From: Candidatus Woesearchaeota archaeon
GTDB lineage: Archaea > Nanobdellota > Nanobdellia > SCGC-AAA011-G17 > PNOQ01
Direction: 5' to 3'
Length of the DNA stretch: 49,971 nt
Assembly (NCBI GenBank): GCA_018693795.1
Contig: JABHMJ010000043.1
Coordinates: 1 to 49,971 of the forward strand
Below, one piece after another: positions 1 to 17,908 of the stretch; position 1 is the stretch's first letter; every line of letters starts with the position of its first letter. Made by a program: the position numbers and the translations under genes. The notes under the pieces were generated by a model. That model saw nothing but the letters and a program-made list of their open reading frames with translations, was not told the DNA's origin and ran no database searches.

Positions 1-2
1 AT

Positions 3-2360
3 AAAAATTATTTTTTCTTAGAAGAAAATTTAGAGAACTTCTCAACTGAATTAAACAAAATAAATGATACATTCGTTAATCTAAATGATATTCTTCTTGT
101 TAGAGAGGAATATGAAGCTCTCAATGATGAAATAAAGAAAATTGTAATAAAATATTCAGGATTAGAAAAAAAAGACAGATTAATGGACACTTTCAAAAAA
201 TTATATTGGAGTAAAGTTTTAGAAAACATATTGAAAAAGGGAAACATTATTCCACCAAAAGATTTAGTTGAAAAATATCGATTAAATGCATTCGAAGTTA
301 GTGATAACTGGAGATTTAAAATAATGGGTGCTGCAAATATGAAAAAACCTTCTTTAGCTATAACCAGCTCTGGATCTAGCGAAGTTTCAATACTCAGAAG
401 GGAAGGAAAAAAGAAGAGAAGATTAAAACCCATAAGAGATTTATTATCTGAAACATCTGATTTATCTTTTAGCTTAAAACCTTGTTTTATGATGAGTCCA
501 CTGAGTGTAAGCCAATATATTGATCCAAATAAAATAAAATTTGATGTAGTAATCTTTGATGAAGCTTCTCAGATTATGCCCCAGGATGCGGTTCCCTGTC
601 TAATGAGGTCCAAACAAGCAATAATTATGGGAGATACTCAACAACTACCTCCCACTACATTTTTTAGTTCACAGGATGAAGAAGAAGTAGAAGAAGAGAT
701 TGAGGATTTAGAAAGTTTTTTGAGTGAAGCTAGCATAAAATTTAGAGAAAAAAGTTTAGATTGGCATTATAGGAGCAATGATGAATCTCTTATTGCATTT
801 TCAAACCATTTTTTCTATGATGGAAGATTAATAACATTTCCAAATTCTTCTAATTCAAATGGTTTAGAACATATCTATGTAAAAGAAGGAGTTTATGATA
901 GAGGAAAATCAAGAAAGAATAGAAAAGAAGCAAAAGCAATTGTTGAAAGCTATGTTTCTCTAAAAAAGAAGTATCCCACTAAATCATTCGGCATAATAGC
1001 TTTTAGTATAGCTCAAGAAAATGCAATAAGAGAGGAATTCCAACTAAAAAAAATAGATTTAGATGCAAGTATAGGATCTGAAAAAGAAGACCTTTTTGTA
1101 AAGAATTTAGAAACTGTTCAAGGAGATGAAAGAGACATAATCATTATCTCAGTTGGTTACGGGAAAAGTTCAGATGGTAAATTAAGTTATAACTTTGGTC
1201 CAATAAATAAAGAGGGAGGATTTAAAAGATTAAACGTAGCGATAACTCGTTCTAGATTTAAAACCCTAATCTTTTCAAGTATTTTACCAACTATGTTGGA
1301 TGAGGACAAAATAAATTCTCAGGGTCTAAGGAACCTTAAACAATATATGACCTATGCAAGGAAGAAAAATATTGGCGGTTTGATTAGTTCGACCGAACAC
1401 TTAAATTTTGATTCTGGTTTTGAGGAATCCGTTTATGATAGTTTAATTAATGAAGGTTACGATGTAAGTTGCCAAGTTGGTTGTTCAGGTTATAAGGTAG
1501 ACCTAGCAATAAAACACCCCAAAAACAAAGGAGAATATATTTTGGGAGTTGAATGTGATGGTGCCCAGTATCATTCATCAAGATATGCGAGAGATCGGGA
1601 TAAAGTCAGACAAGATGTTCTAGAAAGGCTGGGGTGGAAAATTCACAGGATTTGGTCTGATGACTGGTTAAATAATCGAGAACACGAATTGGAAAAAATA
1701 AAAAACAAAATAAATTCTCTATTGAAAAGTAAAAAAAAATTTGAAAAGAAGCAGGATAATCAATTTTTAGATGCAGATGAAGAACATTTAGAAGAAAAAG
1801 AAATAGAGGATTTATTTGAAAGTTATGAATTTGCAGATATTCCTACAAGGAGAAGAAAGCTCGAATATGATTCATATGGAGACTTATATGATGAAGAGTA
1901 TATAAAAAGATTAATCAGAGAAGTTTTAAGTATAGAGGAACCAATAGAAAAATCCCTACTATATAAGAGGGTGGCAAATTCATTTGGGATAAGAAAGGTT
2001 GGAGCAAGAATTAAAAGAAATTTTGATGGTTTAATTAATGAAATGGGTATACAAAAGAATGGAGAAACCCTATCCTGGAAAAGAATAACAGGTATCTTTC
2101 CCCCTAGAATTTCAAATGAAGAGGTTAGGCCTTTTATATACATACCAAAAGAAGAATTGGCAGGCGCACTTATTGAAATATTAAAAAATAATTTTTCAAC
2201 AGATAGAAAATCAATAATGAAGGATGTCACTAAAATTTATAATATAAATCGTTTGGGTAATAAAGTTCATAAAAAAGTGGAAGAAGCTATCAAATATTTA
2301 AAAAGGAAGAAATTAATTGAGGAATTCGATGGAAAAATACGGAAAACTAAGGAAAAATGA
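3..2360 (+). CDS. SF1 (Upf1/DNA2-like) helicase C-terminal half fused to a Vsr/DUF559-type endonuclease domain and a DUF3320-like tail; 5'-truncated by the window edge
   Basis: The frame is open from nt 3, with no stop before the Met at 183, so the gene begins upstream of the window. Helicase motifs: VVIFDEASQI (II), IIMGDTQQLPPT (III), VQGDERDIIIIS (V), LNVAITRSR (VI). These are followed by GYKVDLAI...LGVECDGAQYH...RDRDKVRQDVLERLGWKIHRIW (REase-fold Vsr/DUF559 signature) and a ~230-aa C-terminal tail. Confidence 0.85.
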   Translation, partial: KNYFFLEENLENFSTELNKINDTFVNLNDILLVREEYEALNDEIKKIVIKYSGLEKKDRLMDTFKKLYWSKVLENILKKGNIIPPKDLVEKYRLNAFEVSDNWRFKIMGAANMKKPSLAITSSGSSEVSILRREGKKKRRLKPIRDLLSETSDLSFSLKPCFMMSPLSVSQYIDPNKIKFDVVIFDEASQIMPQDAVPCLMRSKQAIIMGDTQQLPPTTFFSSQDEEEVEEEIEDLESFLSEASIKFREKSLDWHYRSNDESLIAFSNHFFYDGRLITFPNSSNSNGLEHIYVKEGVYDRGKSRKNRKEAKAIVESYVSLKKKYPTKSFGIIAFSIAQENAIREEFQLKKIDLDASIGSEKEDLFVKNLETVQGDERDIIIISVGYGKSSDGKLSYNFGPINKEGGFKRLNVAITRSRFKTLIFSSILPTMLDEDKINSQGLRNLKQYMTYARKKNIGGLISSTEHLNFDSGFEESVYDSLINEGYDVSCQVGCSGYKVDLAIKHPKNKGEYILGVECDGAQYHSSRYARDRDKVRQDVLERLGWKIHRIWSDDWLNNREHELEKIKNKINSLLKSKKKFEKKQDNQFLDADEEHLEEKEIEDLFESYEFADIPTRRRKLEYDSYGDLYDEEYIKRLIREVLSIEEPIEKSLLYKRVANSFGIRKVGARIKRNFDGLINEMGIQKNGETLSWKRITGIFPPRISNEEVRPFIYIPKEELAGALIEILKNNFSTDRKSIMKDVTKIYNINRLGNKVHKKVEEAIKYLKRKKLIEEFDGKIRKTKEK

Positions 2361-3820
2361 AAACGCTAACTAAATCTAAATATTTACTGGGATTACAATG
2401 CCCTAGACAGGTTTGGGTACATTTTCATGAACCAGATAAGGTTCCAGAAGTTGATGCGGCAACTCAAAAAATATTCGATGAGGGAAATGAAGTTGGCGAA
2501 CTAGTAAAAGAACTATTCCCTGGCGGAATTGATCTGCCAACTAAAGACTTTTTGGGCAACATTCAATTAACTAAAGGTTCCCTAAATGAAGGAAAACCTT
2601 TATTTGAGCCAGGATTTTTAACAGAAGATGGATTGTTTTCTAGAGGAGATATTTTACTTCCAACAGAAAATGGATGGGACATAATCGAAGTCAAAAGCGG
2701 TTCTAAAGTTAAAGATATTAACGTTGAAGATGTAGCATTTCAAAAATATTGTTATCAGAAATGCGGATTAAAAATAAATAAATGTTATTTAATGCATCTA
2801 AATAATGAATATGTTAGGGATGGAGATTTGGATGTCCAAGAACTATTCATACAAGAGGATATTACAGAAAGAGTAGAAGAAATATTGCCACAAGTTCCTG
2901 AGAAAATTCAATTAATAAAGGAAACAGTGGATGATCCAATAAGTCCAGAAAATAAAATTGGGTCCCATTGTAGTAAACCATATAATTGTCCATTTCAAGA
3001 GGAATGTTGGAGTTTTTTACCAGAAAATCATGTTGCTCACTTATATAGGGGGGGTGCCAAAGCTTTTGAATTAATTGATGGGAATATTCATGCTCTAAAA
3101 GATATTCCAGATGAATATAAACTAAATGATAAACAGCAAATTCAAAAAGAATGTGCTAAAACAGGAAAACCACATATACATAAAGAATCTCTGAAGCATT
3201 TTCTTTCAGGTTTAAAATATCCATTGTATTACTTGGATTTTGAAACATTTTCTACTGCAGTTCCAAAATTTGATGGATTAAAACCTTACCAACAAGTTCC
3301 TTTTCAATATAGTTTACATGTTGTTGACTCCCCTGGTGCAGAACCAAAACATTATTCTTTTTTGTATAAAGGAAAGGAAGATCCTCGTAAGGAGTTTATT
3401 TCTTCTTTAAAGAAAGTTTTAGGAGAAGCAGGAGATATAATTGTTTATAATCAAAGTTTTGAAATTTCTCGTTTAAGAGAAACTGCTGCTTTTCTTCCAG
3501 AGTATAATGATTGGGTAGAAAGTGTTGTAGGTCGTGTTGTTGATTTATTGATTCCATTTAGAAATTTTAGTTATTATAATCCAAAACAAGAGGGTTCAGC
3601 TTCTTTGAAATATGTTTTACCTGCTTTAACTGGCAAAGATTATTCACATTTGGGGATAAATAATGGTTCTGATGCTCTTTTACAATTTTATAATGCTACT
3701 TATGGAAATGCTTCAGAGGAAGAAAGAGAGAAAGTTTTCAAAGATTTAGAAGAATATTGTGAATTAGATACTTTGGGTATGGTTTGGATTGTTGATGCTT
3801 TGGGGGAATTGATAGGATAA
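2357..3820 (+). CDS. DUF2779-like protein: N-terminal Cas4/RecB-type PD-(D/E)XK nuclease with four Cys, C-terminal DEDDy-like exonuclease-like half
   Basis: Its ATG overlaps the upstream stop (ATGA at 2357-2360). N-terminal half: GDIL...DIIEVKSG...VAFQKYCY (D / ExK / QxxxY), plus Cys in LQCPRQ and HCSKPYNCPFQEEC. C-terminal half: YYLDFETF (DxE), IVYNQSFEISRL, EYCELDTLG (YxxxD). Confidence 0.7.
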   Translation: MKTLTKSKYLLGLQCPRQVWVHFHEPDKVPEVDAATQKIFDEGNEVGELVKELFPGGIDLPTKDFLGNIQLTKGSLNEGKPLFEPGFLTEDGLFSRGDILLPTENGWDIIEVKSGSKVKDINVEDVAFQKYCYQKCGLKINKCYLMHLNNEYVRDGDLDVQELFIQEDITERVEEILPQVPEKIQLIKETVDDPISPENKIGSHCSKPYNCPFQEECWSFLPENHVAHLYRGGAKAFELIDGNIHALKDIPDEYKLNDKQQIQKECAKTGKPHIHKESLKHFLSGLKYPLYYLDFETFSTAVPKFDGLKPYQQVPFQYSLHVVDSPGAEPKHYSFLYKGKEDPRKEFISSLKKVLGEAGDIIVYNQSFEISRLRETAAFLPEYNDWVESVVGRVVDLLIPFRNFSYYNPKQEGSASLKYVLPALTGKDYSHLGINNGSDALLQFYNATYGNASEEEREKVFKDLEEYCELDTLGMVWIVDALGELIG

Positions 3821-3822
3821 GA

Positions 3823-3833
3823 CTTATAAATTT
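3823..3833 (+). promoter_or_regulatory. TATA-like box upstream of mod
   Basis: CTTATAAATTT is centred ~31 nt upstream of the ATG at 3859. A second copy, CTTTATAAATT, lies at 3837-3847. Confidence 0.35.
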
Positions 3834-3858
3834 AAACTTTATAAATTATTTAATTAAA

Positions 3859-5847
3859 ATGTCAATTAAAATGAAAAAACAACAAACAACAAACAACATT
3901 GCAATTCCCAATAAAGATTTAGAAATTCTCAAAAAACATTTTTCTAATTGCTTTGATAAAGGAGGAAATTTTGATATTGAAAAGTTTAAAAAAGAACTAT
4001 CTAAAAATGAAATAGATTTTTCTAAAGAGGGTTATGGGATTGATTGGTTAGGGAAAAATTACGCTAGATTAATTGCAAGTGATAATGCTACAACCCTTCT
4101 AAAAGGAAATAAAGATTGGAATAAAAAAGATGAAAATAAAGATTCCAAAAACTTGCTTATAAAAGGGGATAATCTAGAAGTATTAAAACATCTTTCAAAC
4201 AATTACTATGAAAAAATAAAAATTATATATATTGATCCTCCTTATAACACTGGAAGTGATGGATTTGTATATCAAGATGATAGAAAATTTACAGTAAAAG
4301 AATTATCAAAACTCGCAGGGATAGATGAAGAAAAAGCAAAAAGAATTTTAGAGTTTACTCAAAGTAAAAGCAATTCTCACAGTGCGTGGCTTACTTTTAT
4401 GTATCCAAGGTTGTATATTGCAAAACAACTTTTAAAAGATGAAGGGGTTATTTTTATTTCAATTGATGATAATGAGGTTGCGCAATTAAGACTTTTAATG
4501 GATGAAATTTTTGGAGAAGAAAATTCTCTCGATAGGGGAACTTTGATATGGGTCAACAAGGGCAGTACAAAGGGGTTTAATAAAATTGTAAAAAACCACG
4601 AATATATTCTGGCTTATGGAAAAAACGCAAGTTTGGTTAAAAGTTTTTATGGTAAAAACCATATAGATGAATTAGATATTATTAATGAAAGACTCCAAAT
4701 TAAAAGAACTCTAAAAAATCCTACATCTCAAGTTTTATTTCCAAAGGGCATAAAAATAGAAGAAGTAGACAACACTCTTTTTGAAAATTCTGTGGGAGGG
4801 AAAACAGGCAGAATTGACATTATTAATAATAATAGAAAAATGATTTTTGAAAATGGACGCCTAAAACATGACATAATCCTAGAGGCCGCATTTCCGTATA
4901 AAAATCAAATGATTAAATTTTTTAAAAATGATGGTGAAGTTTATGATTTTAAAGGTCAAAAATGGCTTGAAGTATATTTCAAAAAAACAGGAATACCCTA
5001 TTTTAAAAAAGAGAGAAATACAAAAATTATAAGCTCCATTTTGGATGACTGTGGCAATTCCGGTTTAAAAGATGTTGAAAAATTGAATATTCCTTTTAAT
5101 AATCCAAAACCAGTGAATTTAATTGAGAAAATTATTGACTATTTTTCCTCAAATGAAGATGTCATCCTCGATTTCTTCGCTGGATCTGGAACAACAGGAG
5201 AAGCAGTAATGCAGTTAAATTCTGATACAAAGGGGAATAGAAAATATATTCTAGTTCAACTTCCTGAAGAAATAAATCCTCAGAAAGACAAAATCTCATA
5301 TGATTTTGTTAAAAAAGAATTAAAAATAAAAAACCCCACAATTTTTGATATAACAAAAGAAAGATTATATAGGTCAGCCAAAAAGATAAAAGAAGATAAA
5401 GAAAAAACAACAGACATAGATTTTGGATTTAAAATATTTGAAACAATACCTATTTGGGAAGATTATAATTTTGATACGGAAGAGTTTAGTTCACAAACAA
5501 AACTTTTCAATGAAAGTAATTTAAGAAAAGAGGACTTACAAATTCTTCTAACAACTTGGAAAACTTATGATGGAATTCCGCTTACACAAGATTTAAAAGA
5601 AATAAATTTAGATGGATATACTGGATATTACTTTGACAATAAATTATACTTGATAGATAAAGGATTTAAAACAAAAAATCTTAAAAAATTATTAACTGAA
5701 ATTGATGAAAACAAAGAGTTTAATCCTGCAATTGTTATTGTATTTGGTTATAATTTTGAAAGTAAAGTTTTAAGAGAAATTGCAGAAAATATAAAAAACT
5801 ATTCTAATAAAAAAAATATGGGAGTTGATTTTGTAACAAGATATTAA
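3859..5847 (+). CDS. mod: Type III restriction-modification system methyltransferase (Mod), N6-adenine, beta-class motif order
   Basis: IYIDPPYNTGSD (motif IV, DPPY) precedes DFFAGSGTTGEA (motif I, FxGxG), with a long variable region between them. The gene lies immediately upstream of a Res-type gene. Confidence 0.9.
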   Translation: MSIKMKKQQTTNNIAIPNKDLEILKKHFSNCFDKGGNFDIEKFKKELSKNEIDFSKEGYGIDWLGKNYARLIASDNATTLLKGNKDWNKKDENKDSKNLLIKGDNLEVLKHLSNNYYEKIKIIYIDPPYNTGSDGFVYQDDRKFTVKELSKLAGIDEEKAKRILEFTQSKSNSHSAWLTFMYPRLYIAKQLLKDEGVIFISIDDNEVAQLRLLMDEIFGEENSLDRGTLIWVNKGSTKGFNKIVKNHEYILAYGKNASLVKSFYGKNHIDELDIINERLQIKRTLKNPTSQVLFPKGIKIEEVDNTLFENSVGGKTGRIDIINNNRKMIFENGRLKHDIILEAAFPYKNQMIKFFKNDGEVYDFKGQKWLEVYFKKTGIPYFKKERNTKIISSILDDCGNSGLKDVEKLNIPFNNPKPVNLIEKIIDYFSSNEDVILDFFAGSGTTGEAVMQLNSDTKGNRKYILVQLPEEINPQKDKISYDFVKKELKIKNPTIFDITKERLYRSAKKIKEDKEKTTDIDFGFKIFETIPIWEDYNFDTEEFSSQTKLFNESNLRKEDLQILLTTWKTYDGIPLTQDLKEINLDGYTGYYFDNKLYLIDKGFKTKNLKKLLTEIDENKEFNPAIVIVFGYNFESKVLREIAENIKNYSNKKNMGVDFVTRY

Positions 5848-5848
5848 A

Positions 5849-8713
5849 ATGGCGGGATTTAATTTTGAAAAAAACTTAGAACATCAAAGTCAGGCAGTAA
5901 ACTCTACGGTGGGTGTTTTTGATAGTGTAGAAATAACAAAACCAAAAGGGATAGAAAAAGAATTCACCAATCCCTTCTTGATTAAAGATACAAGTTTTAA
6001 ATATGTGAAAAATATAGGGAATATTCAAGAACAAAATAGTATCGAAAGAAGTGTAAAAGGTAGGAGCAATATTCTTGATATTATGATGGAAACCGGAACA
6101 GGAAAAACTTATGCTTACACCAAAACTATTTTTGAACTCAATAAATTATATGGAATCTTTAAGTTTGTAATTGTGGTGCCCACATTACCCATTAAAGCAG
6201 GGACAATTGATTTTTTAAATTCAGATAGCGCGAGAGAACATTTTAAGGAACAATACGGTAAAACAATAAAAATCCATATTGTAGAAAGTAAAAATGGTAG
6301 GAAAAATAAAAAATCTTATATGCCTCCTGCCATAAATAGTTTTGTCAATGCGGGAAGTTTTGAAAAAAATAAAATTCAAGTATTAATAATAAATGCGGGG
6401 ATGGTTAATTCCAAAACCATGCAAGAAAAGTTTGATAGAACTTTATTAGATAAACATACAATCCCTTTTGAAGCTATCTCTGCAACAAAACCTTTTATGA
6501 TTATTGATGAGCCCCATAAGTTTACTAAAGAAAATACAACATGGCAAAATATTCAGAAAATGGATCCCCAATTTATTCTTAGATATGGTGCAACCTTTAA
6601 AGAAAATGAAAATCTAATTTATAACTTAACTGCTGTTGATTCCTTTAATAGAAATCTAGTAAAGGGAGTTATTGGCCACATTACAGAATTTGAAACTGGG
6701 AAAAATGCAATAATAAAATTTGTAAATTCTGATGGCAAAGAAGCAAGTTTAGATTTAATAGAAAATGATAAAAAGAAATCATTTAAGATTATTGCAAAAG
6801 AAAGTTTAGAAAAAATGCATAATGCAATGGCAGATTTGTATATTGAAAATTTAAACAAAACCACAATTATTTTGTCTAATGGATTAGAATTAAAAAAAGG
6901 AGATAAAATAAATCCATATTCTTATGCAGAAACATTGCAAGAAACAATGATTCAAAAAGCGATTAAACATCATTTTGAACAAGAAAAGAAATATCTTACA
7001 AGGGTAGTCAAAATAAAGCCACTAACTCTGTTTTTTATTGATAATATTGAAGAATATAGAAATAAAGAAGGGTATCTAAAAAAAACTGTTGAAAAATATA
7101 TAAAAGTAGAAGTTAAGAAATTGTTAAAAACAGAAAAAGATAAATTCTATAAAGAATACTTAGAAAAAACTTTGCAAGATATTTCAAAAACTCACGGAGG
7201 TTATTTTTCTAAAGATAATAGTGAAAAAGATGAGGCAATTGAAAAAGAAGTAAATGAAATTTTGCACGATAAACAAGAAATACTAGATTTAGAAAATCCA
7301 AGAAGATTTATTTTTTCTAAATGGACATTAAGGGAAGGGTGGGACAATCCAAATATTTTTCAGATTTGTAAATTAAGAAGTAGTGGATCAGAGATTTCAA
7401 AATTACAAGAGGTAGGTCGTGGGCTTCGTTTGCCAGTAAATCAATATGGAAATCGTGTAAAAAATGAACAATTTTTCTTAAATTATTTTGTAGATTTTAC
7501 TGAGAATGATTTTGTAGAACAATTGGTAAATGAAATAAACGAAAAATCAGGGGCAATTTCAATAGAAGATACCCCCAAAAAACTTACAGGTGAAATAATT
7601 AAACAAATAGTTGAAAAATATAATATCCAGGAAGAAAAATTGTTAGAAAAGCTAGATGGTGCAAGTGTTATCAAAAGGAATAATGATTTTAAAACAGATG
7701 GATTTGAGTATATAAAAACAAATTATCCGCTTATTTTTGAAGGGATAAATTCAAACAAAGTTAGAAGAGTCGCAGATACCAAAAAGAAACTGGGGATAAG
7801 GGTTAAAAAATACGCAGAATTAAAAGATTTGTGGGAAAAACTTAATGAAAAAGTTGTATTAGAATATAAAATAGAAAATGAAAACAAATTTAAAGAACTT
7901 TTTATAGATTTTTTAAAAAACAACCCTTCTTTTTCAATTGAAGGGGTAAAAGAGAAAATAGCAAAAATAACCTTTGAAAAAAAACAAGCTACCTTAAAAG
8001 AAGAAGTTGCAATCTATGGAAATAAAATAAAACCTATCTCAACAATGAGATATGATGAATTTTTGAAACAACTATCTAAAATTTTACATATTAATTTAAA
8101 AACTTTGCATCAGTGTTTTGTTGAAACAAAAATAGAAATAGATAAATATCAAAATCAATCTACTATTAGATTTTTCCAAAAAAAATTTAATGATTACTTG
8201 ATGTATGAGGCTTTGAACAAATTTACAATTGAATATAAAAAAGTAACAGGTTCCATTCATCCAACAAAATTTACAAATGTTGATGGCAAAGTTAAAGATG
8301 AAATTGACGCTTCTGATGTAGGGTTACTTTATTCGGATGACCTTGTAGCAAACAATTATTTTTTTGAGGAATTATTTTATGATTCAGAATTAGAAAAAGA
8401 AAATATAAAAACAAAAGTAAGTGAAGTGATTGTTTTTACTAAGATACCTAAAAATTCAATTAGGATACCTGTTGCAGGAGGTAAAAGCTATTCTCCCGAT
8501 TTTGCTTATGTCTTAAATTTTGAGGATGGCAAAAAGAAATTGTATTTTATTGTTGAAACAAAAAATACTGATGAAGAAAGCCTAAGAAAAGAAGAAATAC
8601 AAAAGATTAAACATGCAGAAAAATTCTTTGGGGATACTATAAAAATAAAATTCAAAACACAATTTAGTGATAGGAAAATAGCAACTTTAATTCAAGAGAT
8701 ATATAATAAATAA
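5849..8713 (+). CDS. res: Type III restriction enzyme Res subunit (SF2 helicase plus C-terminal PD-(D/E)XK nuclease)
   Basis: Starts 1 nt after the mod stop. Motifs: METGTGKTY (Walker A/motif I), MIIDEPHK (motif II), QEVGRGLRLPV (motif VI), and C-terminal SPDFAYVL...YFIVETKNT (D...ExK). Confidence 0.9.
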   Translation: MAGFNFEKNLEHQSQAVNSTVGVFDSVEITKPKGIEKEFTNPFLIKDTSFKYVKNIGNIQEQNSIERSVKGRSNILDIMMETGTGKTYAYTKTIFELNKLYGIFKFVIVVPTLPIKAGTIDFLNSDSAREHFKEQYGKTIKIHIVESKNGRKNKKSYMPPAINSFVNAGSFEKNKIQVLIINAGMVNSKTMQEKFDRTLLDKHTIPFEAISATKPFMIIDEPHKFTKENTTWQNIQKMDPQFILRYGATFKENENLIYNLTAVDSFNRNLVKGVIGHITEFETGKNAIIKFVNSDGKEASLDLIENDKKKSFKIIAKESLEKMHNAMADLYIENLNKTTIILSNGLELKKGDKINPYSYAETLQETMIQKAIKHHFEQEKKYLTRVVKIKPLTLFFIDNIEEYRNKEGYLKKTVEKYIKVEVKKLLKTEKDKFYKEYLEKTLQDISKTHGGYFSKDNSEKDEAIEKEVNEILHDKQEILDLENPRRFIFSKWTLREGWDNPNIFQICKLRSSGSEISKLQEVGRGLRLPVNQYGNRVKNEQFFLNYFVDFTENDFVEQLVNEINEKSGAISIEDTPKKLTGEIIKQIVEKYNIQEEKLLEKLDGASVIKRNNDFKTDGFEYIKTNYPLIFEGINSNKVRRVADTKKKLGIRVKKYAELKDLWEKLNEKVVLEYKIENENKFKELFIDFLKNNPSFSIEGVKEKIAKITFEKKQATLKEEVAIYGNKIKPISTMRYDEFLKQLSKILHINLKTLHQCFVETKIEIDKYQNQSTIRFFQKKFNDYLMYEALNKFTIEYKKVTGSIHPTKFTNVDGKVKDEIDASDVGLLYSDDLVANNYFFEELFYDSELEKENIKTKVSEVIVFTKIPKNSIRIPVAGGKSYSPDFAYVLNFEDGKKKLYFIVETKNTDEESLRKEEIQKIKHAEKFFGDTIKIKFKTQFSDRKIATLIQEIYNK

Positions 8714-8717
8714 TATT

Positions 8718-9386
8718 TTAGTTATTCTCCTTCCAACTCCAATAATCACACTTCCCAACAATAACATGATCCAAAACAGAAATACCCAATAATTCTCCCG
8801 CTTCTCTAAAAATTTCAGTAACTCTCTCATCCTCAGAACTAGGACTACAATCACCTGAAGGATGATTATGAACTAATATTATGGAATTTGCACTCTCTTT
8901 AATAGCACTCTTAAAAACCTCACGTGGATGAACCAGAGAACTATTTAAGGTACCAACAGAAACAACAGAATCTTTAATAATAAAATTTTTAGTATCTAAA
9001 TACAAACAAAGAAAATACTCTTTTTTACGTTTACCATAAGAATCAACAAAATAATCATAAACATCTTTGGCAGAAGTAATCTTTCGTTTATAACCATGAT
9101 TAACCAATTTATTATATCTTTTACTCAACTCAATTAAAGCTTGTATTCTAAATGCTTTTCCAATATCATTATTACATTCTTTCAACAACTCAGTAAAACC
9201 AAGTTCTTCAAATTTGTGTAAATTATATTTTTTTAATAATCTGTTACTTATTTCTAAAGCACTCTCTTTTTTATCCCCTTTCCCAAATATTATTGATAAT
9301 AACTCTGCAGTATCTAATGAAGAAGCACCCTGTTTTAGTAATTTAGAAGAAGGTTTGTTAAATGAAGGCAAATCTTTTATTTTCAT
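8718..9386 (-). CDS. radC: RadC-like JAB/MPN domain protein
   Basis: JAMM-type motif ILVHNHPSGDCSPSSED. The N-terminal HhH-like segment ELLSIIFGKGDKKESALEISNRLL is typical of the RadC family. Confidence 0.85.
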   Translation of the reverse strand: MKIKDLPSFNKPSSKLLKQGASSLDTAELLSIIFGKGDKKESALEISNRLLKKYNLHKFEELGFTELLKECNNDIGKAFRIQALIELSKRYNKLVNHGYKRKITSAKDVYDYFVDSYGKRKKEYFLCLYLDTKNFIIKDSVVSVGTLNSSLVHPREVFKSAIKESANSIILVHNHPSGDCSPSSEDERVTEIFREAGELLGISVLDHVIVGKCDYWSWKENN

Positions 9387-9426
9387 AAAAAAACTAACTA
9401 AAATCTCTTTAAAAGGTTTTATTTAG

Positions 9427-9501
9427 TTAACTACTAACAAAAGTGTCTCCCATCTCTTCATACCTTTCCACCAATTCCAAAAATATTTCATTTATTTCCA
9501 T
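9427..9501 (-). CDS. Possible 24-aa micro-ORF (MEINEIFLELVERYEEMGDTFVSS) with a strong Shine-Dalgarno
   Basis: On the minus strand, GGAGGTCTAAATG places GGAGG 5 nt upstream of the ATG at 9499-9501, with the TAA at 9427-9429. It lies in the integrase-radC intergenic gap and is below the ORF-track size cut-off. Confidence 0.25.
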   Translation of the reverse strand: MEINEIFLELVERYEEMGDTFVSS

Positions 9502-9555
9502 TTAGACCTCCAATTATTTCAAAGGCCTATTGCTTAACATGTCTAAAGACTCGGT

Positions 9556-10905
9556 TTATTGCTTGACCATTTTCCTAAATTCTGAATACAATTCAAAAAA
9601 CTTACTTTTCAAAGCAGGAGTATTCATAACAGTTTCAAAATTTAAATCATAAGTATTACCAGAAGCGCAAGAAACAACAGGAGCTTTCTGTACATCTAAA
9701 CAAAAGGAATCAATCTCTTTACTTAACCTCTCAACTTTCAATAACTCCTTTTCATTTAAAATCATTCCGCAATTACAATGCATTGCATCAATTGGATTCT
9801 TTCTATCACACCTGGGGCAAGTAATTAACTGCATAACCTTTTCATTACTCCCTTCAGAACTAACAATTCCATACATTTCAGCATATTTGTTATTAACATG
9901 GTCTTCAGAGTAATGCAAATAAATCTTCGCCATTTGAGATCCTTCACTCCATCCCGCCCTAACAGACAAATCCCTCTCAGACCAACCTAATCTACCCAAT
10001 TTATCCAAAGCAGCATGTCTAAAAGCATGCGGATTAACTCTTTTAGTTATTCCAGAACGTTTAGCATATTTAACCAACAATCCACGAATTCCAGCTAAAG
10101 TAAGTCTTTTTCCATAATCACGAGTACCAAGACAATAAAATAAAGGAGCTTCAGAATTTTTCTTGTATACATGTTGGTTCTTATAACGCCTCAAATAAGG
10201 TTCACTAATAATCAATCTAATCTTTCTTTTTTTAGTCTTACTCTCTTGTATATCAATAAAAGCACCATAACTATCAAAACTAATATTTCCAACATTCAAA
10301 TCAATTAATTCTCCAACTCTACACCCACTTTCTGCTAGAATAGATATCAATGCTTTATCTCTAGCCAAATCTGCTGAATTAATTAGTTTCAAAATATCAG
10401 AATCATCCAACAACTTATTTTGATCCAATCTCTCAATCATGCACTTATCAAATTTCATATTCTCCAAAGTTTCAACAATTTCATTAAAATCCAATTTTTC
10501 ACGTTTTGCTAGCCAAGCATAAAAACATTTCAGAGTTTTTGCAATAGAATTCAACACTGATTGACTACAAGAAGAATATCGCTCAATAAATCCTTCTGCA
10601 TCAGATAAATTGGCCTCTAAATACTCTTTGTTAATATACACGCCAAATCTCCGTAAATGCCTTATATACTCATAAAAAGTTGCATAGCTTCTAGCCTTCT
10701 TACTAGACTTAGTCACTGTATTGCCTGTCCTAAGGGCCATGTAATAGGTTCTCAATAACTTTTGTTGATCTAAACTCAAGTTTCCCTTCACAATAACCTT
10801 AGAACTACTATCTCTGCTTTGATCTACCTGATCAGTTAAACACCTTTCAATTCTTTCAATATACTGTTCTTCTCGTTCTTTTCTCATTTTATAACAAATA
10901 GCCAA
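9556..10905 (-). CDS. Tyrosine recombinase/integrase (XerC/D-like) with a ~100-aa C-terminal extension carrying a zinc ribbon
   Basis: ESGCRVGELIDL (catalytic Arg box), HAFRHAALDKL (HxxR), KIYLHYS (catalytic Tyr), then CPRCDRKNPIDAMHCNCG. The track start at 10905 is a TTG; the first ATG is at 10887. Confidence 0.85.
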   Translation of the reverse strand: MAICYKMRKEREEQYIERIERCLTDQVDQSRDSSSKVIVKGNLSLDQQKLLRTYYMALRTGNTVTKSSKKARSYATFYEYIRHLRRFGVYINKEYLEANLSDAEGFIERYSSCSQSVLNSIAKTLKCFYAWLAKREKLDFNEIVETLENMKFDKCMIERLDQNKLLDDSDILKLINSADLARDKALISILAESGCRVGELIDLNVGNISFDSYGAFIDIQESKTKKRKIRLIISEPYLRRYKNQHVYKKNSEAPLFYCLGTRDYGKRLTLAGIRGLLVKYAKRSGITKRVNPHAFRHAALDKLGRLGWSERDLSVRAGWSEGSQMAKIYLHYSEDHVNNKYAEMYGIVSSEGSNEKVMQLITCPRCDRKNPIDAMHCNCGMILNEKELLKVERLSKEIDSFCLDVQKAPVVSCASGNTYDLNFETVMNTPALKSKFFELYSEFRKMVKQ

Positions 10906-10988
10906 ATTTCCTTTTTTTTAAAATTATTTATTCATCCTAGAAGAAAGATGAATTTTGTTAATCAACTCCAAGAAAACCAATAATTTTT

Positions 10989-12017
10989 TTATTTTAATAT
11001 TGTTAATTTCTTTGGTTTTTGTTTTATATCCAATTCTTTAAAATTTATATTGACAAAATATGCTCCAGAAGGTAAATTCCTACCTGAGCTATCTTTTTGA
11101 TTCCAAAAATAGGAATTGCTTTCCCCAATTTCTGCAAAAATATCTTCTGTTCTTAACATTCTTCCTTTTAAATCAGATATAGTTATTCTTGCCTGGCCAT
11201 ATCCTGAATAATCTATGGTAGTCCCAGACTGAGGATTTGATGGGTTGGGATATAAATTAGTTATACCATAATTAACTTGTATTATTTCTCCAGGATTATT
11301 TGGGTCTTCAATGTCTTCAATGGAAACTTGATTATATGCATCAAAGAATTCAGATGGAGGACTTCTAGGGCCTTCATCTCCGTCAAAATCAACACCAGAA
11401 ACATAAATTCTAAACCAATAATTAACTCCGGAGGTAAAACTAACAAAAGCAGATTCACCTGTAGCTTCCTTTATTTTAAATATTTCCCCATAATCTCCAC
11501 TTTCAGGATTATAGTATTCGATATAAACATTATAATATTCAACTTCAGGTCCAGTTTCAGGAGGTCCCCACACATATTGTACTTCATCTTCATCCATCCC
11601 ACTAGGATCAATATAATTCATAGGATTATTAGAAACATAATTGTAAGCATGATTATCTTTTATTGGATCAACAGAAGTAAATCTTCCTAATGAAGAATCA
11701 TAATATCTTGCATTAAAATAATATAAATCAGAATCTAATTCTTTTCCAGTAAAACTAAATCTTTTACCAATTTTCAACGATTGACCAAAGGGTAATGATT
11801 TAGACTCAACATCTGATCCTAAACGATCTTGATAATGATAAGTAATAGTGTCATCATTTTTAGAAGCAACTAACTTAGAACCAGCATAAAAGTAAGTAGT
11901 CTCTCCACCGGGAATAACTTTATCTTTAGTTTCAAAAACTTCAGGTATAGAAATATCTTTTGAATTAACTAAAGGGATAACTAATAAAATTACAAATATC
12001 ACCAAACTTAATTTCAT
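10989..12017 (-). CDS. Secreted RHS-core family protein, paralogue 1: signal peptide, minimal RHS repeat-associated core, FN3-like domain, FlgD-Ig/T9SS-CTD-like domain
   Basis: N-terminal hydrophobic signal. YYFNARYYDSSLGRFTSVDP...NNPMNYIDPSGM is the RHS repeat-associated core signature ending in DPxG. The C-terminus, LYPNPSNPQSGTTIDY...ITISDLKGRML...WNQKDSSGRNLPSGAYFV, resembles the FlgD-Ig/Por-type sorting-domain pattern. Confidence 0.75.
   Translation of the reverse strand: MKLSLVIFVILLVIPLVNSKDISIPEVFETKDKVIPGGETTYFYAGSKLVASKNDDTITYHYQDRLGSDVESKSLPFGQSLKIGKRFSFTGKELDSDLYYFNARYYDSSLGRFTSVDPIKDNHAYNYVSNNPMNYIDPSGMDEDEVQYVWGPPETGPEVEYYNVYIEYYNPESGDYGEIFKIKEATGESAFVSFTSGVNYWFRIYVSGVDFDGDEGPRSPPSEFFDAYNQVSIEDIEDPNNPGEIIQVNYGITNLYPNPSNPQSGTTIDYSGYGQARITISDLKGRMLRTEDIFAEIGESNSYFWNQKDSSGRNLPSGAYFVNINFKELDIKQKPKKLTILK
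11595..12017 (-). repeat. Conserved N-terminal module (signal peptide + RHS core to DPSGM), copy 1 of 3
   Basis: Protein- and nucleotide-level similarity to 29526-29942 and 47914-48327. For example, 11828-11910 aligns to 29749-29831 with only scattered mismatches. Confidence 0.85.
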
Positions 12018-12110
12018 AATAAATTATATTTCAAATTTAAACTTTTTAAGTATTTCTAATTAAGTCAATAACCAATAATCTTTTAAATAATTAAATTAAA
12101 ATTCTAAACA

Positions 12111-12953
12111 ATGGTAAAGAAAAAAACAGTAAAAAAGAAAGTAATTAAGAAAAAAATTTCTAAACAAAAAACAGATCAAGATATAGCAATGGATTTTGCT
12201 ACTAAAGCTTATAAAAAATTTCAAGAAGCAATTAAATCAATAGTTCTGTTTGGAAGTGTTTCTAAAAAAAGTACAACAAAAGGAAGTGATATAGATATTT
12301 TAGTAATTGTAGATGATTGTTCAATTCAATGGGATCAAGAATTAATTGCTTGGTATAGGGAAGAAATGGGAAAAATAGTTGAAAAACATTCAGAAAGACT
12401 TCACATAAATACCGTTACTCTATCAACATTCTGGGAAGATGTAAGAGAAGGAGAACCGGCAGCAATAAACATAATTAGATACGGACAAACATTAATTGAT
12501 TTTGGAGGATTTTTTGATCCATTAAAATCATTATTAGCAAAAGGAAGAATACGCCCAACTCCAGAAGCAATATTTACGACATTAAGAAGAGCACCGTTAC
12601 ACATTTCTAGAGCAAAATTTGATATCATAAATTCAATAGAACATTTATATTGGGCAATGGTAGATTCTGCACACTCTGCGCTAATGGCTAAAAATCAAAT
12701 TCCGCCATCTCCTGAACATGTGGGAGAAATGTTAGATGAAGTGTTCAATAAAACACTAGATAAAAAATACATTAAATGGTATAACGAAATGTATGCTCTG
12801 GCACATGATATTATTCATGGAAATGTAAAACATTTAACAGGAAAAGACATTGATGTATTAATGGCTAGAACAGTTGAATTTGAAAAGAAATTTAGAGATA
12901 TAACAGCCCAATTAATTCATAAAGAAAAAATAATAAAAGAAGAAATAAATTAA
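12111..12953 (+). CDS. Minimal nucleotidyltransferase (Pol-beta superfamily) with a Lys-rich N-terminus and a helical HEPN-like C-terminal domain
   Basis: GSVSKKSTTKGSDIDILVIVDD (GS...DxD NTase motif). The helical C-terminal half is a clear paralogue of the core of 17909-19678. Confidence 0.7.
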   Translation: MVKKKTVKKKVIKKKISKQKTDQDIAMDFATKAYKKFQEAIKSIVLFGSVSKKSTTKGSDIDILVIVDDCSIQWDQELIAWYREEMGKIVEKHSERLHINTVTLSTFWEDVREGEPAAINIIRYGQTLIDFGGFFDPLKSLLAKGRIRPTPEAIFTTLRRAPLHISRAKFDIINSIEHLYWAMVDSAHSALMAKNQIPPSPEHVGEMLDEVFNKTLDKKYIKWYNEMYALAHDIIHGNVKHLTGKDIDVLMARTVEFEKKFRDITAQLIHKEKIIKEEIN

Positions 12954-12955
12954 AA

Positions 12956-13696
12956 TTAATTATTTGCTTGTAAAGCACTATAAGCTACTGCCTTTGCTGC
13001 TTTAGATACATTCTGTAGATTTGTATAACTTCCTTCGCCATCTACTTCATAAGCATTTTCGACTAAGTTCCATGCATAATGTTTTGTTTTATCCACATCT
13101 AACTTATCTTTCTTTTCGCCTGTAGCAATTTCTTGAACAAATGAAAATTGTCTTGCAGGTATAACGGTTTCATCATATAATCTTGCAATTTCTTCAGAAC
13201 TTAAAACGCCCTGAACACTTACCATATAATCATTTGCAATGTCACCAACTAAAGCACCAATATTTTGTGTTGATAAATTAGTTTGAGCTTGTGCATAAGA
13301 TAAATGTGCTTTGTTCACTGATTCATATTTATCAGTTTCAATAGCAGGCATGTTCATTAAAAAACCAAATCCTGCTTCTAAACTAGAGCCCCACGAAGGT
13401 GCGATAGTTCCATTTAAAAGATCATCTAAATTATCAAAAGTATTATCTACAAAAGGGACTATTTCTTCATCAGGATTACCTGTGAATAATATTGTGTTTT
13501 CTTTATCGGATAACAAATGTCCAACTTTTGGTGCATTCCAATTATAAACTTCTTGTGTTGGTCTATTAAACAAAGCAACACTAGCCATATCTCTTGTTTC
13601 TTGAGTATCTGGATTTTCTGCAAATCTTCGAGATGCTTCATCTAAATATCGCAGTTTTCCTGCTTCTTCCTTATATTTTTCGAAATTAAATGTCAT
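12956..13696 (-). CDS. Hypothetical protein (246 aa, acidic)
   Basis: Long ORF preceded by GGGGT 8 nt upstream of the ATG. No motif recognised. Confidence 0.55.
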   Translation of the reverse strand: MTFNFEKYKEEAGKLRYLDEASRRFAENPDTQETRDMASVALFNRPTQEVYNWNAPKVGHLLSDKENTILFTGNPDEEIVPFVDNTFDNLDDLLNGTIAPSWGSSLEAGFGFLMNMPAIETDKYESVNKAHLSYAQAQTNLSTQNIGALVGDIANDYMVSVQGVLSSEEIARLYDETVIPARQFSFVQEIATGEKKDKLDVDKTKHYAWNLVENAYEVDGEGSYTNLQNVSKAAKAVAYSALQANN

Positions 13697-13753
13697 ATTA
13701 TTTACCCCATAATTTTATTACTTTACAAGAGTAACACCCATATATAAAGCTTT

Positions 13754-14038
13754 CTATTCAGGTTTATTTATTAAATAATCCTGTTCCCTTCTATCTAGTT
13801 CACAAACAATTTCCTGGATATAAGTGCCGACTATAGAATATCTATCTGTGTCTATAAATTGGGCAAGCGGATAATCCCTTGGAAAAGGAGAATTTTTGTT
13901 TAATGTACCATCATTGATATCTGTATGAACAATACACATAGCCTTAACTAACCCGCCCAGGCCCATATCTTTAATATTTTTCTCTATATCCATTTTAATT
14001 AAATAAGCGACCCAATAATAGTATTTAAAATTAATCAT
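13754..14038 (-). CDS. Hypothetical protein (94 aa)
   Basis: ORF whose ATG (14036-14038) overlaps the stop of the upstream micro-ORF (ATGA). Confidence 0.5.
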   Translation of the reverse strand: MINFKYYYWVAYLIKMDIEKNIKDMGLGGLVKAMCIVHTDINDGTLNKNSPFPRDYPLAQFIDTDRYSIVGTYIQEIVCELDRREQDYLINKPE

Positions 14039-14163
14039 TCAGGTTTTTCAGCACGAAAACCACATTTTTTACAATATTTTACTAGAAATAATCCATCCTC
14101 AAACCTATGTTGTCCTTCATGCAATGCATCTCCACATTCTGGGCAATTATGTTTTTCTTTCAT
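14035..14163 (-). CDS. 42-aa zinc-ribbon protein (MKEKHNCPECGDALHEGQHRFEDGLFLVKYCKKCGFRAEKPE)
   Basis: Hand translation. Two CxxC pairs (CPEC...CKKC). ATGA overlaps at both ends, with the ppsA stop at 14160-14163 and with the next ORF's start at 14035-14038. Below the ORF-track size cut-off. Confidence 0.6.
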   Translation of the reverse strand: MKEKHNCPECGDALHEGQHRFEDGLFLVKYCKKCGFRAEKPE

Positions 14164-16481
14164 CCTCTGGCCACATCCAACAACATTTTTTTCTCTTTCT
14201 CTGCAACAGCATGTCTCACTTTCCCAACAGCATCAATATTAACCGCTATAGAATCGATCCCCTTTTCAACTAAAAATCTAGCCATATCAGGATCAGATCC
14301 TGCTTGACCACACAAACTAGATTCAACTTTATATCTTTTACAAATTTTAATAACTTGGGAAATTTCTTTCAAAACAGCAGGATGCATCGCATTATATAAT
14401 TTTTGAATTTTAGCATTATTTCTGTCAACAGCTAAAGTAAATTGAGTTAAATCATTTGAACCAATTGAAGCAAAATTTATGCCTTCTTGACAAAATTCTT
14501 CAATCATTTGAACAGATGCAGGAGTTTCAACCATTATTCCAAATTCGATATCTTCCATCTCTAATTCTTTTAATACTGCTTTAACCAATTTTATTTGTTC
14601 AACATGGCTAACTAATGGGATCATCAATCCTAACTTATCGAAACCTTTTGAACGCACTTTTTTTATGGCCTCTAATTGTGCCCTAAGTAATTCGGGCTGA
14701 TCTAAATCTCTCCTTATAGATCTCCAGCCCATCATGGGATTATCCTCTTTAGGTTCATCTTCTCCCCCAGACAAATGTCTAAATTCATCTGTAGGAGCAT
14801 CTAAAGTTCTATACCAAACTCTTTTTTCTTTAAATGGTGTAACTATTTTTGTTAAATCTTCTTCTAATCTATTAACTAATTCTTCTTTTCTTCCCTCATT
14901 AATTAATTTAACAGGATGTTCCTTTTGGCCCAAAATCATAAACTCTGCCCTTAATAATCCAATTCCATCCGCATCAGTATTTGCTGCCTTTTCAGCCAAA
15001 TCTGGCATATCTACAATAACTTTTATTTCAGTAGCAGTATGTTCATGTTGGTATTTAACAATCTCTTCAGAGCTAACATCATCTTTGGAAGCTTCAATTT
15101 TTTTATCTCCAGAATAAATTTTTCCATTAGTCCCATCAACAGTAATTTCTTGTCCTTCTTTCAAAACTTCAGTTGCTTTCTGAGTTCCAACAACAGAAGG
15201 AATTCCCATTTCTCTAGAAACAATTGCAGCATGACAAGTAGCTCCCCCCTCATCAGTAACAATTGCACTAGCTTTTTGCATAGCAGAAACATAATCAGGG
15301 TTAGTCATTTTAGCAACTAACACATCTCCTTCAGTAATTTTACTTAATTCATCTGCATTATTAATTATCTTAACTTTTCCTTTTCCAACACCTGGAGAGG
15401 CAGAAATTCCATTTAAAATTTCTTTTCCATCAATTTCTTCAACTTTTTTAGAAACAGCTTCAGAAACTTTAGCTTGTGTTGTTATAGCTCTTGTTTGAAC
15501 CATAAAAACTTTATTTCCAGCAATAGCAAATTCCATATCTTGAGGATTATTATAATAGTCTTCTGATTTTTTAGCTAACTTTGCAATTTGTATAATTTCA
15601 CTTTCATTCAAAACTTGCATATTAGCTTTTTCATGACACAAAATTCTTTTATTTGTTCTTCCAGTATTGGGATCTCTATAAAACATAAATTCTTTATTAT
15701 TGATAGTTTTATTTTTTATTTCAAAAGTATGTTTATCAACAACATAATTATCTGGAGAAATAGCACCAGAAACTACAGAATCACCAAATCCAAATCCAGC
15801 TTCAATTATAATCTCATCTTCATTGTTTGTAGCCGGATTAATACTAAACATTACTCCAGCTTTTTCAGAATCCACCATTCTTTGAACGACAACAGCAATG
15901 AAAACTTTATTATGATCAAAATTATTTTTTTCTCTATAATAAATTGCTCTTGCAGTATATAACGAAGCCCAACATTGATGAACTGCTTGAGAAACATGAT
16001 CAGATTTTTTCACATTCAAATAAGTTGCTTGTTGTCCAGCAAAAGAAAATTCTGGTAAATCCTCTGCAGTTGCACTTGAACGGACAGCCACAAAAGGATT
16101 ATCTCTTCCAGTTTGAATAAAATCTAAAGCTTGTTTAGAAACATTTGCTAAATCTAAACTAACATTCATATTTTCATAAGCTTTTTTTATATCACTCGCA
16201 ATTTCAGCAGACATTTCTGTTTTTAAAATCAAATCTTGAATTTTTTTTGAGGCACTTTGTAATTGATCATTATTTTCTACATCCGTATTTCTTAATATTT
16301 CTCCAATGTGAGATTGAATTCCAGTTTGTTCTAAAAATAATTTATATGCTTGTGCTGTTACAACAAATCCATTTGGAATAGGAAACTGAGCATTAAACAT
16401 CTCTCCTAAATTAGCGCCTTTTCCACCAACTTTTCCCACATCTTCTTTAGAAATATCTTTAAACCAAATAATATTAGTCAT
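14160..16481 (-). CDS. ppsA: Phosphoenolpyruvate synthase (pyruvate, water dikinase)
   Basis: GGKGANLGEM (ATP-grasp N-terminus), GGATCHAAIVSREMGIP (phospho-His domain), IGSNDLTQFTLAVDR (PEP-utilising C-terminal domain). The 773-aa length fits PpsA rather than PPDK. Confidence 0.95.
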   Translation of the reverse strand: MTNIIWFKDISKEDVGKVGGKGANLGEMFNAQFPIPNGFVVTAQAYKLFLEQTGIQSHIGEILRNTDVENNDQLQSASKKIQDLILKTEMSAEIASDIKKAYENMNVSLDLANVSKQALDFIQTGRDNPFVAVRSSATAEDLPEFSFAGQQATYLNVKKSDHVSQAVHQCWASLYTARAIYYREKNNFDHNKVFIAVVVQRMVDSEKAGVMFSINPATNNEDEIIIEAGFGFGDSVVSGAISPDNYVVDKHTFEIKNKTINNKEFMFYRDPNTGRTNKRILCHEKANMQVLNESEIIQIAKLAKKSEDYYNNPQDMEFAIAGNKVFMVQTRAITTQAKVSEAVSKKVEEIDGKEILNGISASPGVGKGKVKIINNADELSKITEGDVLVAKMTNPDYVSAMQKASAIVTDEGGATCHAAIVSREMGIPSVVGTQKATEVLKEGQEITVDGTNGKIYSGDKKIEASKDDVSSEEIVKYQHEHTATEIKVIVDMPDLAEKAANTDADGIGLLRAEFMILGQKEHPVKLINEGRKEELVNRLEEDLTKIVTPFKEKRVWYRTLDAPTDEFRHLSGGEDEPKEDNPMMGWRSIRRDLDQPELLRAQLEAIKKVRSKGFDKLGLMIPLVSHVEQIKLVKAVLKELEMEDIEFGIMVETPASVQMIEEFCQEGINFASIGSNDLTQFTLAVDRNNAKIQKLYNAMHPAVLKEISQVIKICKRYKVESSLCGQAGSDPDMARFLVEKGIDSIAVNIDAVGKVRHAVAEKEKKMLLDVARG

Positions 16482-16538
16482 ATCATAAACACCTCTTAAT
16501 AAGAATATAACTGTAATAGTTTTATAAACTTTTTGTTG

Positions 16539-17021
16539 TTATAAAGTTCCTCTTTTTAACAATTCAGTAATAGTTTCTGGGGCATGCATAACTCCAATCT
16601 TTCTATCAGCAACTTTCAACCCTTTTCCATCCCTACATGGGACATTATACAATGTTGGAAATTCATCACTAGGATTTTTAAAAACTTGCAAAGCCTGCTT
16701 TAAAATATCTCTAACTGTAAATGTATATACATGAGTTAAATTTTCGGCAGTTCCTCTTAATGGCATTTGAACTTCTAATGAATCTGAAAAAAATATGTTT
16801 GGCATATCACTTCTTCCAACAATATATGAATTTCTTTTTTCTTCATCACTTTTTCCAATAAGGTTTGCAGCACTAGAAAAATCAAAATATCCATATTGAT
16901 TTATAGACATATACGCCATAGGCTCCACAGGTGTAATAAATCCAGTTTTTTCTATTTCTGCAGCCTCATTACTAGTAACAATATGATACAATGTTTTATT
17001 AGTTAATATTTGATTTCCCAT
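16539..17021 (-). CDS. Hypothetical protein (160 aa)
   Basis: ORF only; no motif recognised. Confidence 0.5.
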   Translation of the reverse strand: MGNQILTNKTLYHIVTSNEAAEIEKTGFITPVEPMAYMSINQYGYFDFSSAANLIGKSDEEKRNSYIVGRSDMPNIFFSDSLEVQMPLRGTAENLTHVYTFTVRDILKQALQVFKNPSDEFPTLYNVPCRDGKGLKVADRKIGVMHAPETITELLKRGTL

Positions 17022-17091
17022 TTTTCAATAATTTATCAAAAATAAAGTAATTTATAAGTCTTTCTATTAAGTAACTACTTGCAAAAAGTAA

Positions 17092-17607: not shown

Positions 17608-17609
17608 TT

Positions 17610-17867: not shown

Positions 17868-17908
17868 AGTTATATCTGCACTAAATGTTGGTTTATAAAC
17901 TTTTCGGC

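Follow-up and report, generated by a model that had tools for sequence, protein, structure and literature searches.

The first 8713 nt of contig JABHMJ010000043.1, which was analyzed over a stretch of 49,971 nt (the window), carry four co-directional genes that encode a helicase-nuclease, a DUF2779 protein, and the Mod and Res subunits of a type III restriction-modification (R-M) enzyme. We consider it likely that positions 1-8713 form a variable defence-island hotspot, where independent modules have accreted around a resident DUF2779 gene, and not one machine. The hotspot would comprise three units, namely a helicase-nuclease of the PDC-S37 type, the resident DUF2779 double nuclease, and type III Mod/Res, and we infer that these modules act independently in vivo. 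The GC content is low throughout the window (~29%), and the host is probably a low-GC archaeon of the DPANN. This placement follows from the names given to homologues and from the archaeal ribosomal proteins; the DNA of the DUF2779 gene had no exact match among species-representative genomes.

An earlier note on this DNA proposed that the four genes form a candidate composite defence system, or that the helicase and DUF2779 genes form an independent two-gene module. Its description of the block was accurate. All four open reading frames (ORFs) are intact and separated by spacers of at most 38 nt: an ATGA overlap (2357-2360) joins the first two genes, 38 nt precede mod and 1 nt precedes res. 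An A/T-rich stretch that resembles a TATA box lies 5' of mod. Gene 1 has an uninterrupted reading frame between base 3 and its stop codon at 2360, and its N-terminus lies outside the window. Pfam confirmed AAA_11, AAA_12, MTES_1575/DUF559 and DUF3320 in gene 1 and DUF2779 in gene 2, and identified genes 3 and 4 as Mod and Res, each of which is also a full-length match to a type III model of PADLOC (Table 1). The count of two helicase motors and at least three nuclease folds holds on these domain assignments. RadC and a tyrosine integrase close the island, as described. The gene set as a whole also corresponds to no named multi-gene system: the only such PADLOC matches were partial and confined to helicase domains (MkoA, MkoC and DpdJ), and none of the four proteins matched HamA, GajA, Drm, Dru, Zor or Brx. 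By their signature proteins, the four therefore belong to none of Hachiman, Gabija, DISARM, Druantia, Zorya, BREX and Mokosh.

The two functional proposals were not supported. PADLOC places three of the four genes in existing entries, Mod/Res and the helicase each matching a model singly, and the helicase-DUF2779 adjacency is essentially limited to its own genome. These are essentially the two outcomes that the note itself had named as speaking against its reading.

The pairing of helicase and DUF2779 is not conserved

The missing 5' end of the helicase gene was recovered from a contig carrying the same sequence. An exact look-up of the DUF2779 protein returned eight contigs (NCBI, ENA, JGI) with an identical protein, and in one of them (L001, GCA_018670755.1) the full helicase gene spans L001:670-5178 and encodes 1502 aa. 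The C-terminus of this protein is identical to the window peptide.

We searched for the pairing in the best 80 loci of each family. The 80 DUF2779 loci come from different species of DPANN archaea, Chloroflexota, Verrucomicrobiota and others, and their DUF2779 proteins are 45-59% identical to that of the window. When all ORFs within 10 kb of DUF2779 were searched with the full helicase, none of the 80 loci had a helicase. Conversely, a profile search (E <=1e-3) found no DUF2779 within 8 kb of the helicase at any of 80 helicase loci, and none of these 80 loci had type III genes. Among 65 metagenome loci, the helicase was present only on one 100%-identical fragment. The adjacency is also absent from nine closer relatives, whose DUF2779 proteins are 61-88% identical.

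No other family takes the place of the helicase as a recurrent partner. Across species, the immediate neighbours (+/-1) of DUF2779 include no recurrent family; the largest cluster of neighbours comprises six loci, all from Chloroflexota and mostly from Dehalococcoidia. The most frequent Pfam families among the neighbours are TPR and ABC transporters, while C5 methylase and GmrSD have two members each.

The overlap between the two genes might suggest a specific partnership. However, a 4-nt overlap at the start of DUF2779 also occurs with GmrSD (P0001 and L010), with a 247-aa gene (P0006) and with a 190-aa gene. Because the same overlap joins DUF2779 to unrelated upstream genes, it does not indicate a specific partnership with the helicase. 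The two proteins also differ in how close their relatives are: DUF2779 has relatives up to 88% identical, whereas the nearest database homologue of the helicase is ~53% identical. As far as sequence identity goes, this difference is consistent with a recent arrival of the helicase at this locus.

Both flanks of DUF2779 turn over among close relatives

The wider gene order was read from a 19-kb JGI contig. The order is a CARF/Csa3-like helix-turn-helix (HTH) regulator, followed by GmrSD, a 122-aa orphan gene, the helicase and DUF2779, and continues with Mod, Res, RadC (- strand) and the integrase (- strand).

The nine close relatives differ in the genes around DUF2779. In P0001 (88% DUF2779 identity), the regulator and GmrSD precede DUF2779, with the 4-nt overlap, and a 383-aa gene and BREX follow. 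The order in P0002 (87%) is regulator, HNH, DUF2779, two small genes and SNF2-DUF4391-Mod-Res. No defence genes lie beside DUF2779 in P0003 (82%), which is the locus called L086 below. L170 (77%) has the regulator, MNT, HEPN and DUF2779, and then type I R-M on the other strand. P0005 (74%) has HNH (- strand), DUF2779 and HsdM, and P0006 (71%) has the overlapping 247-aa gene, DUF2779 and methyltransferases. In P0008 (69%), P0011 (67%) and P0015 (61%), type IIG, C5 methylase, GmrSD and type I genes are found within a few kb. Thus, in the relatives with 77-88% identity, the place of the helicase is taken by GmrSD, HNH, MNT-HEPN or unrelated genes. DUF2779 therefore persists through these contexts, while the genes on either side of it are exchanged. 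In P0001, GmrSD lies directly on DUF2779, from which it follows that the 122-aa gene and the helicase were inserted between GmrSD and DUF2779.

The CARF/Csa3-like regulator (HFX_2341_N plus HTH) heads a block of regulator, cassette and DUF2779 in five contexts, in which the DUF2779 proteins are 57-100% identical. The cassettes behind it are GmrSD; HNH; MNT-HEPN; and GmrSD with the 122-aa gene and the helicase. Besides the JGI contig, where it lies upstream of the window, examples of the regulator are found at L170:6296-6946 and L010:7021-7626.

Mod and Res lie in a segment that is missing from a syntenic genome

The Mod and Res proteins are an ordinary type III R-M enzyme, complete on its own as judged from sequence. 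Mod matches PF01555 (E 2.4e-35) and the EcoP15I-type C-terminal domain PF18273 (E 1.6e-34), and it aligns with the PADLOC model MTase_III end to end (E 3.6e-178, residues 5-662 against positions 3-657 of 657). Its translation contains the motifs DPPY and FAGSGTTG. Res aligns with REase_III at 1086 bits (residues 1-951 against positions 2-970 of 973) and contains TGTGKT, DEPH and D...ETK. Both proteins thus belong to type III R-M as its two subunits. The pair shares with EcoP15I-like systems the DPPY-type Mod with its C-terminal domain, the Res that joins a superfamily 2 (SF2) motor to an endonuclease, and the 1-nt spacer between mod and res. There is no structural difference; what sets this pair apart is its archaeal host and the adjoining RadC and integrase genes. 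If the enzyme works like those type III enzymes that have been characterised, its Mod would methylate only one strand of an asymmetric site. The Res-Mod complex would cleave close to one of two inversely oriented sites, both unmethylated, after an ATP-dependent communication between them.

Type III genes that follow DUF2779 in other DPANN genomes (L049:5643-11757, L071:1-2959 and L030:9893-19279) are distantly related to those of the window; the gene between DUF2779 and the type III genes in L030 is SNF2-like. No RadC/integrase element lies behind them in L049 or L030, and L071 ends inside Mod.

The L086 genome is collinear with the window over positions 2356-3811 (DUF2779) and 12070-19716, at 80-82% DNA identity. 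The second block encodes the nucleotidyltransferase, a 246-aa gene, PPDK, and the ribosomal proteins L10e and L35Ae. L086 lacks positions 3821-12069 of the window, i.e., ~8.2 kb with Mod, Res, RadC, the integrase and a 342-aa protein, and no helicase lies upstream of its DUF2779. We read Mod and Res as having arrived on, or beside, a segment of ~8.2 kb with RadC, the tyrosine integrase and the secreted 342-aa protein.

A direct repeat brackets the segment in the window. The 17-mer AAATTTAAACTTT[A/T]TAA has two matches in the window (3828 and 12033), compared with 0.08 expected by chance. Both copies fall on junctions of the segment, and their similarity extends to ~35 nt. It is plausible that the repeat is a duplication of an attachment (att) site. 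Tested as a general promoter motif, the 17-mer showed no excess at 3 mismatches, and tested as an empty att site, it had no counterpart at the L086 locus. Between its DUF2779 and nucleotidyltransferase genes, L086 has an N-terminal (SAM-like) fragment of a tyrosine recombinase (L086:12000-12200). As this is another integrase fragment, the site has been hit repeatedly by integrative elements.

The 342-aa protein, the last gene of the segment, has a signal-peptide-like N-terminus, a motif resembling the RHS/YD core (YYFNARYYDSSLGRFTSVDP) and a sub-threshold match to Por_Secre_tail, which is an odd combination for an archaeon.

Table 1. Features at and next to the putative hotspot, with positions in the window
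Feature	Position	Strand	Basis or remark
Helicase-nuclease, C-terminal 785 aa of 1502 aa	1..2360	+	Pfam; PADLOC PDC-S37
DUF2779 protein, 487 aa, Cas4-like PD-(D/E)XK and DEDDy 3'-5' exonuclease (both predicted)	2357..3820	+	PF11074, alignment, structure model
Direct repeat, left copy, AAATTTAAACTTTATAA and ~15 similar bases	3828..3858		Directly after the DUF2779 stop; candidate attL or promoter element
Mod, type III methyltransferase, 662 aa	3859..5847	+	N6_N4_Mtase and T3RM_EcoP15I_C; MTase_III
Res, 954 aa, SF2 helicase and C-terminal PD-(D/E)XK	5849..8713	+	ResIII and RE_endonuc; REase_III
RadC-like JAB-domain protein	8718..9386	-	RadC (E 3e-44) and UPF0758_N
Tyrosine recombinase (integrase), C-terminal zinc-ribbon-like tail	9556..10905	-	Phage_integrase (E 3.9e-20)
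Secreted 342-aa protein, last gene of the segment missing from L086	10989..12017	-	Translation
Direct repeat, right copy, candidate attR	12033..12066		L086 homology resumes at ~12070

The helicase-nuclease is a candidate single-gene defence protein

The full helicase has the domain order DUF4011, AAA_11, AAA_12, MTES_1575 (a Vsr-like nuclease) and DUF3320. It matches the PADLOC profile PDC-S37 end to end (E 0, 1119 bits, residues 9-1497 of 1502 against positions 7-1545 of 1550). The related Hhe profile aligns only with the helicase-nuclease core (residues 840-1290 against positions 1324-1783 of 1911), at less than half the PDC-S37 score, so that the protein is not a full-length match to Hhe. 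With PDC-S37, a single-gene candidate in PADLOC, it shares the end-to-end match, the domain order and the lack of a conserved partner, the 80 helicase loci being free of DUF2779 and type III genes. The nearest solved structures are those of the superfamily 1B (SF1B) helicases Upf1, IGHMBP2, Sen1 and DNA2. An alignment of 15 homologues showed that the Vsr-like residues, the Walker A motif (GPPGTGKS) and the DEAS motif are all invariant.

According to Anantharaman et al. (2013), MTES_1575 has the Vsr fold of restriction endonucleases, and a winged-helix domain overlaps with DUF3320. The 145 PDC entries are candidates, proposed because their genes are embedded in loci of BREX, DISARM or type I R-M ('guilt-by-embedding'). 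PDC-S37, DUF4011 and DUF2779 all lack an entry in the supplements of the PDC publication, and we found little or nothing in the literature on PDC-S37 and DUF3320. Deletion of hhe in E. coli gave no phenotype in one assay. From its sequence, we take the helicase-nuclease to be a candidate defence protein of the PDC-S37/Hhe type that is encoded by a single gene and is self-contained. Its SF1B motor would translocate along nucleic acid, DNA would be cut by the Vsr-like nuclease fused to this motor, and the DUF4011 and DUF3320 (winged-helix) ends would supply recognition.

Neither Pfam nor PADLOC gave a match for the 122-aa gene that separates GmrSD from the helicase (L001:288-656). As none of the 225 fetched DUF2779 and helicase loci contains a homologue, we rejected this gene as a conserved partner of the helicase.

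The DUF2779 protein combines two nuclease folds

The DUF2779 protein matches PF11074 well above the cut-off (E 1.4e-42, 145 bits compared with 23.3). PADLOC has no model of its own for this family and gave only weak Cas4 matches in the N-terminal half (E 7.6e-8). An alignment of 18 homologues showed three sets of invariant residues: the Cas4-type D98, E111, K113 and Q129; four cysteines (C15, C205, C211 and C217); and the DEDDy set D294, E296, D396, Y467 and D471. A structure model was needed because a sequence-profile search of the PDB gave nothing significant. The AlphaFold model has a mean pLDDT of 92 and a pTM of 0.85. Foldseek matched its N-terminal half to Cas4 (8d3l, E 2.6e-5), Exo5 and MGME1, and its C-terminal half to RNase T, the herpes simplex virus (HSV) polymerase exonuclease, ERI2 and the exonuclease domain of DinG. 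The DEDD exonuclease that the earlier note had called possible is thus borne out by both residues and model. Since the Cas4-like and DEDD halves are both supported, its count of nuclease folds was right. This architecture predicts that the protein acts on DNA ends, which it would resect or degrade.

A fusion of a Cas4-like nuclease with a DEDD exonuclease was predicted for DUF2779 by Majorek et al. (2014), and again in a 2026 mSphere paper for MMSYN1_0389 of JCVI-syn3.0, which reports that the gene is quasi-essential in this minimal Mycoplasma. The fusion is common to MMSYN1_0389 and the window protein, and the D/E/K and DEDDy residues are conserved in the latter, but the Mycoplasma protein keeps two of the Cas4-type cysteines whereas this archaeal clade has four. 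Like Cas4, the window protein has a PD-(D/E)XK core with four cysteines of the iron-sulfur type. Unlike Cas4, a nuclease of CRISPR adaptation, it has no CRISPR association: no cas1 or cas2 is found among the genes ~10 kb on either side, and the Rfam scan of the window found no CRISPR family. Relative to the DUF2779 (PF11074) family, what differs here is the position of the gene at a likely defence hotspot.

Members of this DUF2779 clade from DPANN archaea, Chloroflexota, Verrucomicrobiota, Actinomycetota and Omnitrophota remain 45-60% identical. Such conservation between domains is unusually high and points to horizontal transfer or to strong constraint. A viral origin was rejected, as only 11 matches were found in 2.9 million viral contigs.

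Weighing the alternatives

Several observations count against a hotspot of independent modules. The ATGA overlap and the co-directional packing would suit joint transcription of the genes in this strain, and perhaps also cooperation. DUF2779 adjoins defence genes more often than expected of a housekeeping gene. In DPANN archaea, for instance, GmrSD lies directly upstream of it in three loci: in L010 and the P0001 contig GmrSD overlaps the DUF2779 start, and in L173 it lies 12 nt upstream. GmrSD is also close by in L180, L181 and L210. In L049 and L071 a co-directional Mod-Res follows DUF2779 directly, and in L030 a single gene intervenes. On the side of the inserted segment, a duplicated promoter is an alternative to att sites for the direct repeat, and L086 is not a clean empty site, as it contains 0.8 kb of filler of its own with the integrase fragment. 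Each comparative scan was made on the best 80 loci. Finally, a panel of nine defence proteins searched with phmmer matched at only six of the 80 DUF2779 loci within 5 kb, and at a similar five of the 80 helicase loci; because this panel is too insensitive, we make no claim of enrichment of defence genes around DUF2779.

These associations could mean that, in DPANN archaea, DUF2779 serves restriction-type modules in general as an accessory that degrades the ends of broken foreign DNA. It would break down ends after cuts by GmrSD, the type III enzyme or the helicase-nuclease, either standing in for RecBCD/AddAB or supplying fragments, as the centre of a platform with exchangeable sensor and cutter cassettes. 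In favour of this view are the persistence of DUF2779 between restriction-type genes that vary on either side, the GmrSD arrangements just listed and the CARF/Csa3-like HTH regulator that heads the block in five contexts. The succession of DUF2779 and Mod-Res, adjacent or one gene apart, occurs in three of the 25 archaeal loci whose downstream sequence is long enough, and the three DUF2779 proteins (L049, L071 and L030) are not each other's closest relatives. However, most neighbours of DUF2779 across the 80 species are not defence genes and include no recurrent partner, the insensitive panel matched at few loci, and L086 retains its DUF2779 although restriction genes are absent from the vicinity. 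The quasi-essentiality in the minimal Mycoplasma argues for a housekeeping role, and a hotspot beside a core gene explains the pattern with no functional link. We therefore regard a general accessory role as rather unlikely. The same low standing applies to the proposal that the DPANN DUF2779 is a fixed part of a cassette-exchanging defence platform, often with the CARF/Csa3-like HTH regulator upstream. In such a platform, GmrSD, HNH, PDC-S37, type III, type I and BREX would plug in, and the Cas4-like/DEDDy exonuclease would complete the destruction of the broken DNA or process it, taking the part of RecBCD/AddAB in degradation after restriction.

It is much less probable that the helicase-nuclease and DUF2779 form a lineage-specific, translationally coupled two-gene defence module. 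The overlap fits such a module, and the pair is present on every contig (NCBI, ENA, JGI) that carries the exact DUF2779 and reaches far enough upstream. Yet no other lineage that was scanned has the pair, the same overlap is found with unrelated upstream genes, and the helicase family, a single-gene candidate in the PADLOC models, occurs without DUF2779 in all 80 loci. The arrangement in P0001, with GmrSD directly on DUF2779, implies that the helicase came in later together with the 122-aa gene. Least probable, and in our view hardly credible, is one obligate composite of all four genes, in which another motor and additional nucleases extend a type III R-M system. Its argument is the co-directional packing with such short spacers; against it, Mod/Res is complete alone and lies in the segment missing from the syntenic L086, and no other scanned locus combines these families. 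A hotspot at which independent modules gather around DUF2779 thus remains the reading that we prefer.

Other features of the window

The nucleotidyltransferase-domain protein at 12111-12953 (+ strand) has a longer paralogue, 29% identical, 5 kb away (17909-19678, - strand). A 123-nt tRNA at 49008-49130 (+ strand) was matched by Rfam and missed by ARAGORN; it is probably an intron-containing archaeal tRNA.

Meaning of the locus

Defence-island hotspots flanked by conserved core genes have been described for E. coli, Pseudomonas and Vibrio. The locus resembles them in its conserved flanking gene, its rapidly exchanged defence cargo, and its integrase genes and remnants. It differs in that the host is an archaeon (probably of the DPANN), that the anchor gene itself would encode a nuclease, and that a CARF-like regulator often bounds the far side of the upstream cassette.

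If the composite reading were true, the block would be a new defence system with several motors and several nucleases. The evidence instead describes a mosaic of known or catalogued parts, and the block is therefore not carried forward as a new system. The locus provides a complete archaeal example of the PDC-S37 helicase-nuclease candidate. It also documents what is likely a defence hotspot in DPANN-like archaea, anchored by the very widespread DUF2779 double nuclease, and this hotspot gives a concrete lead on the function of DUF2779.

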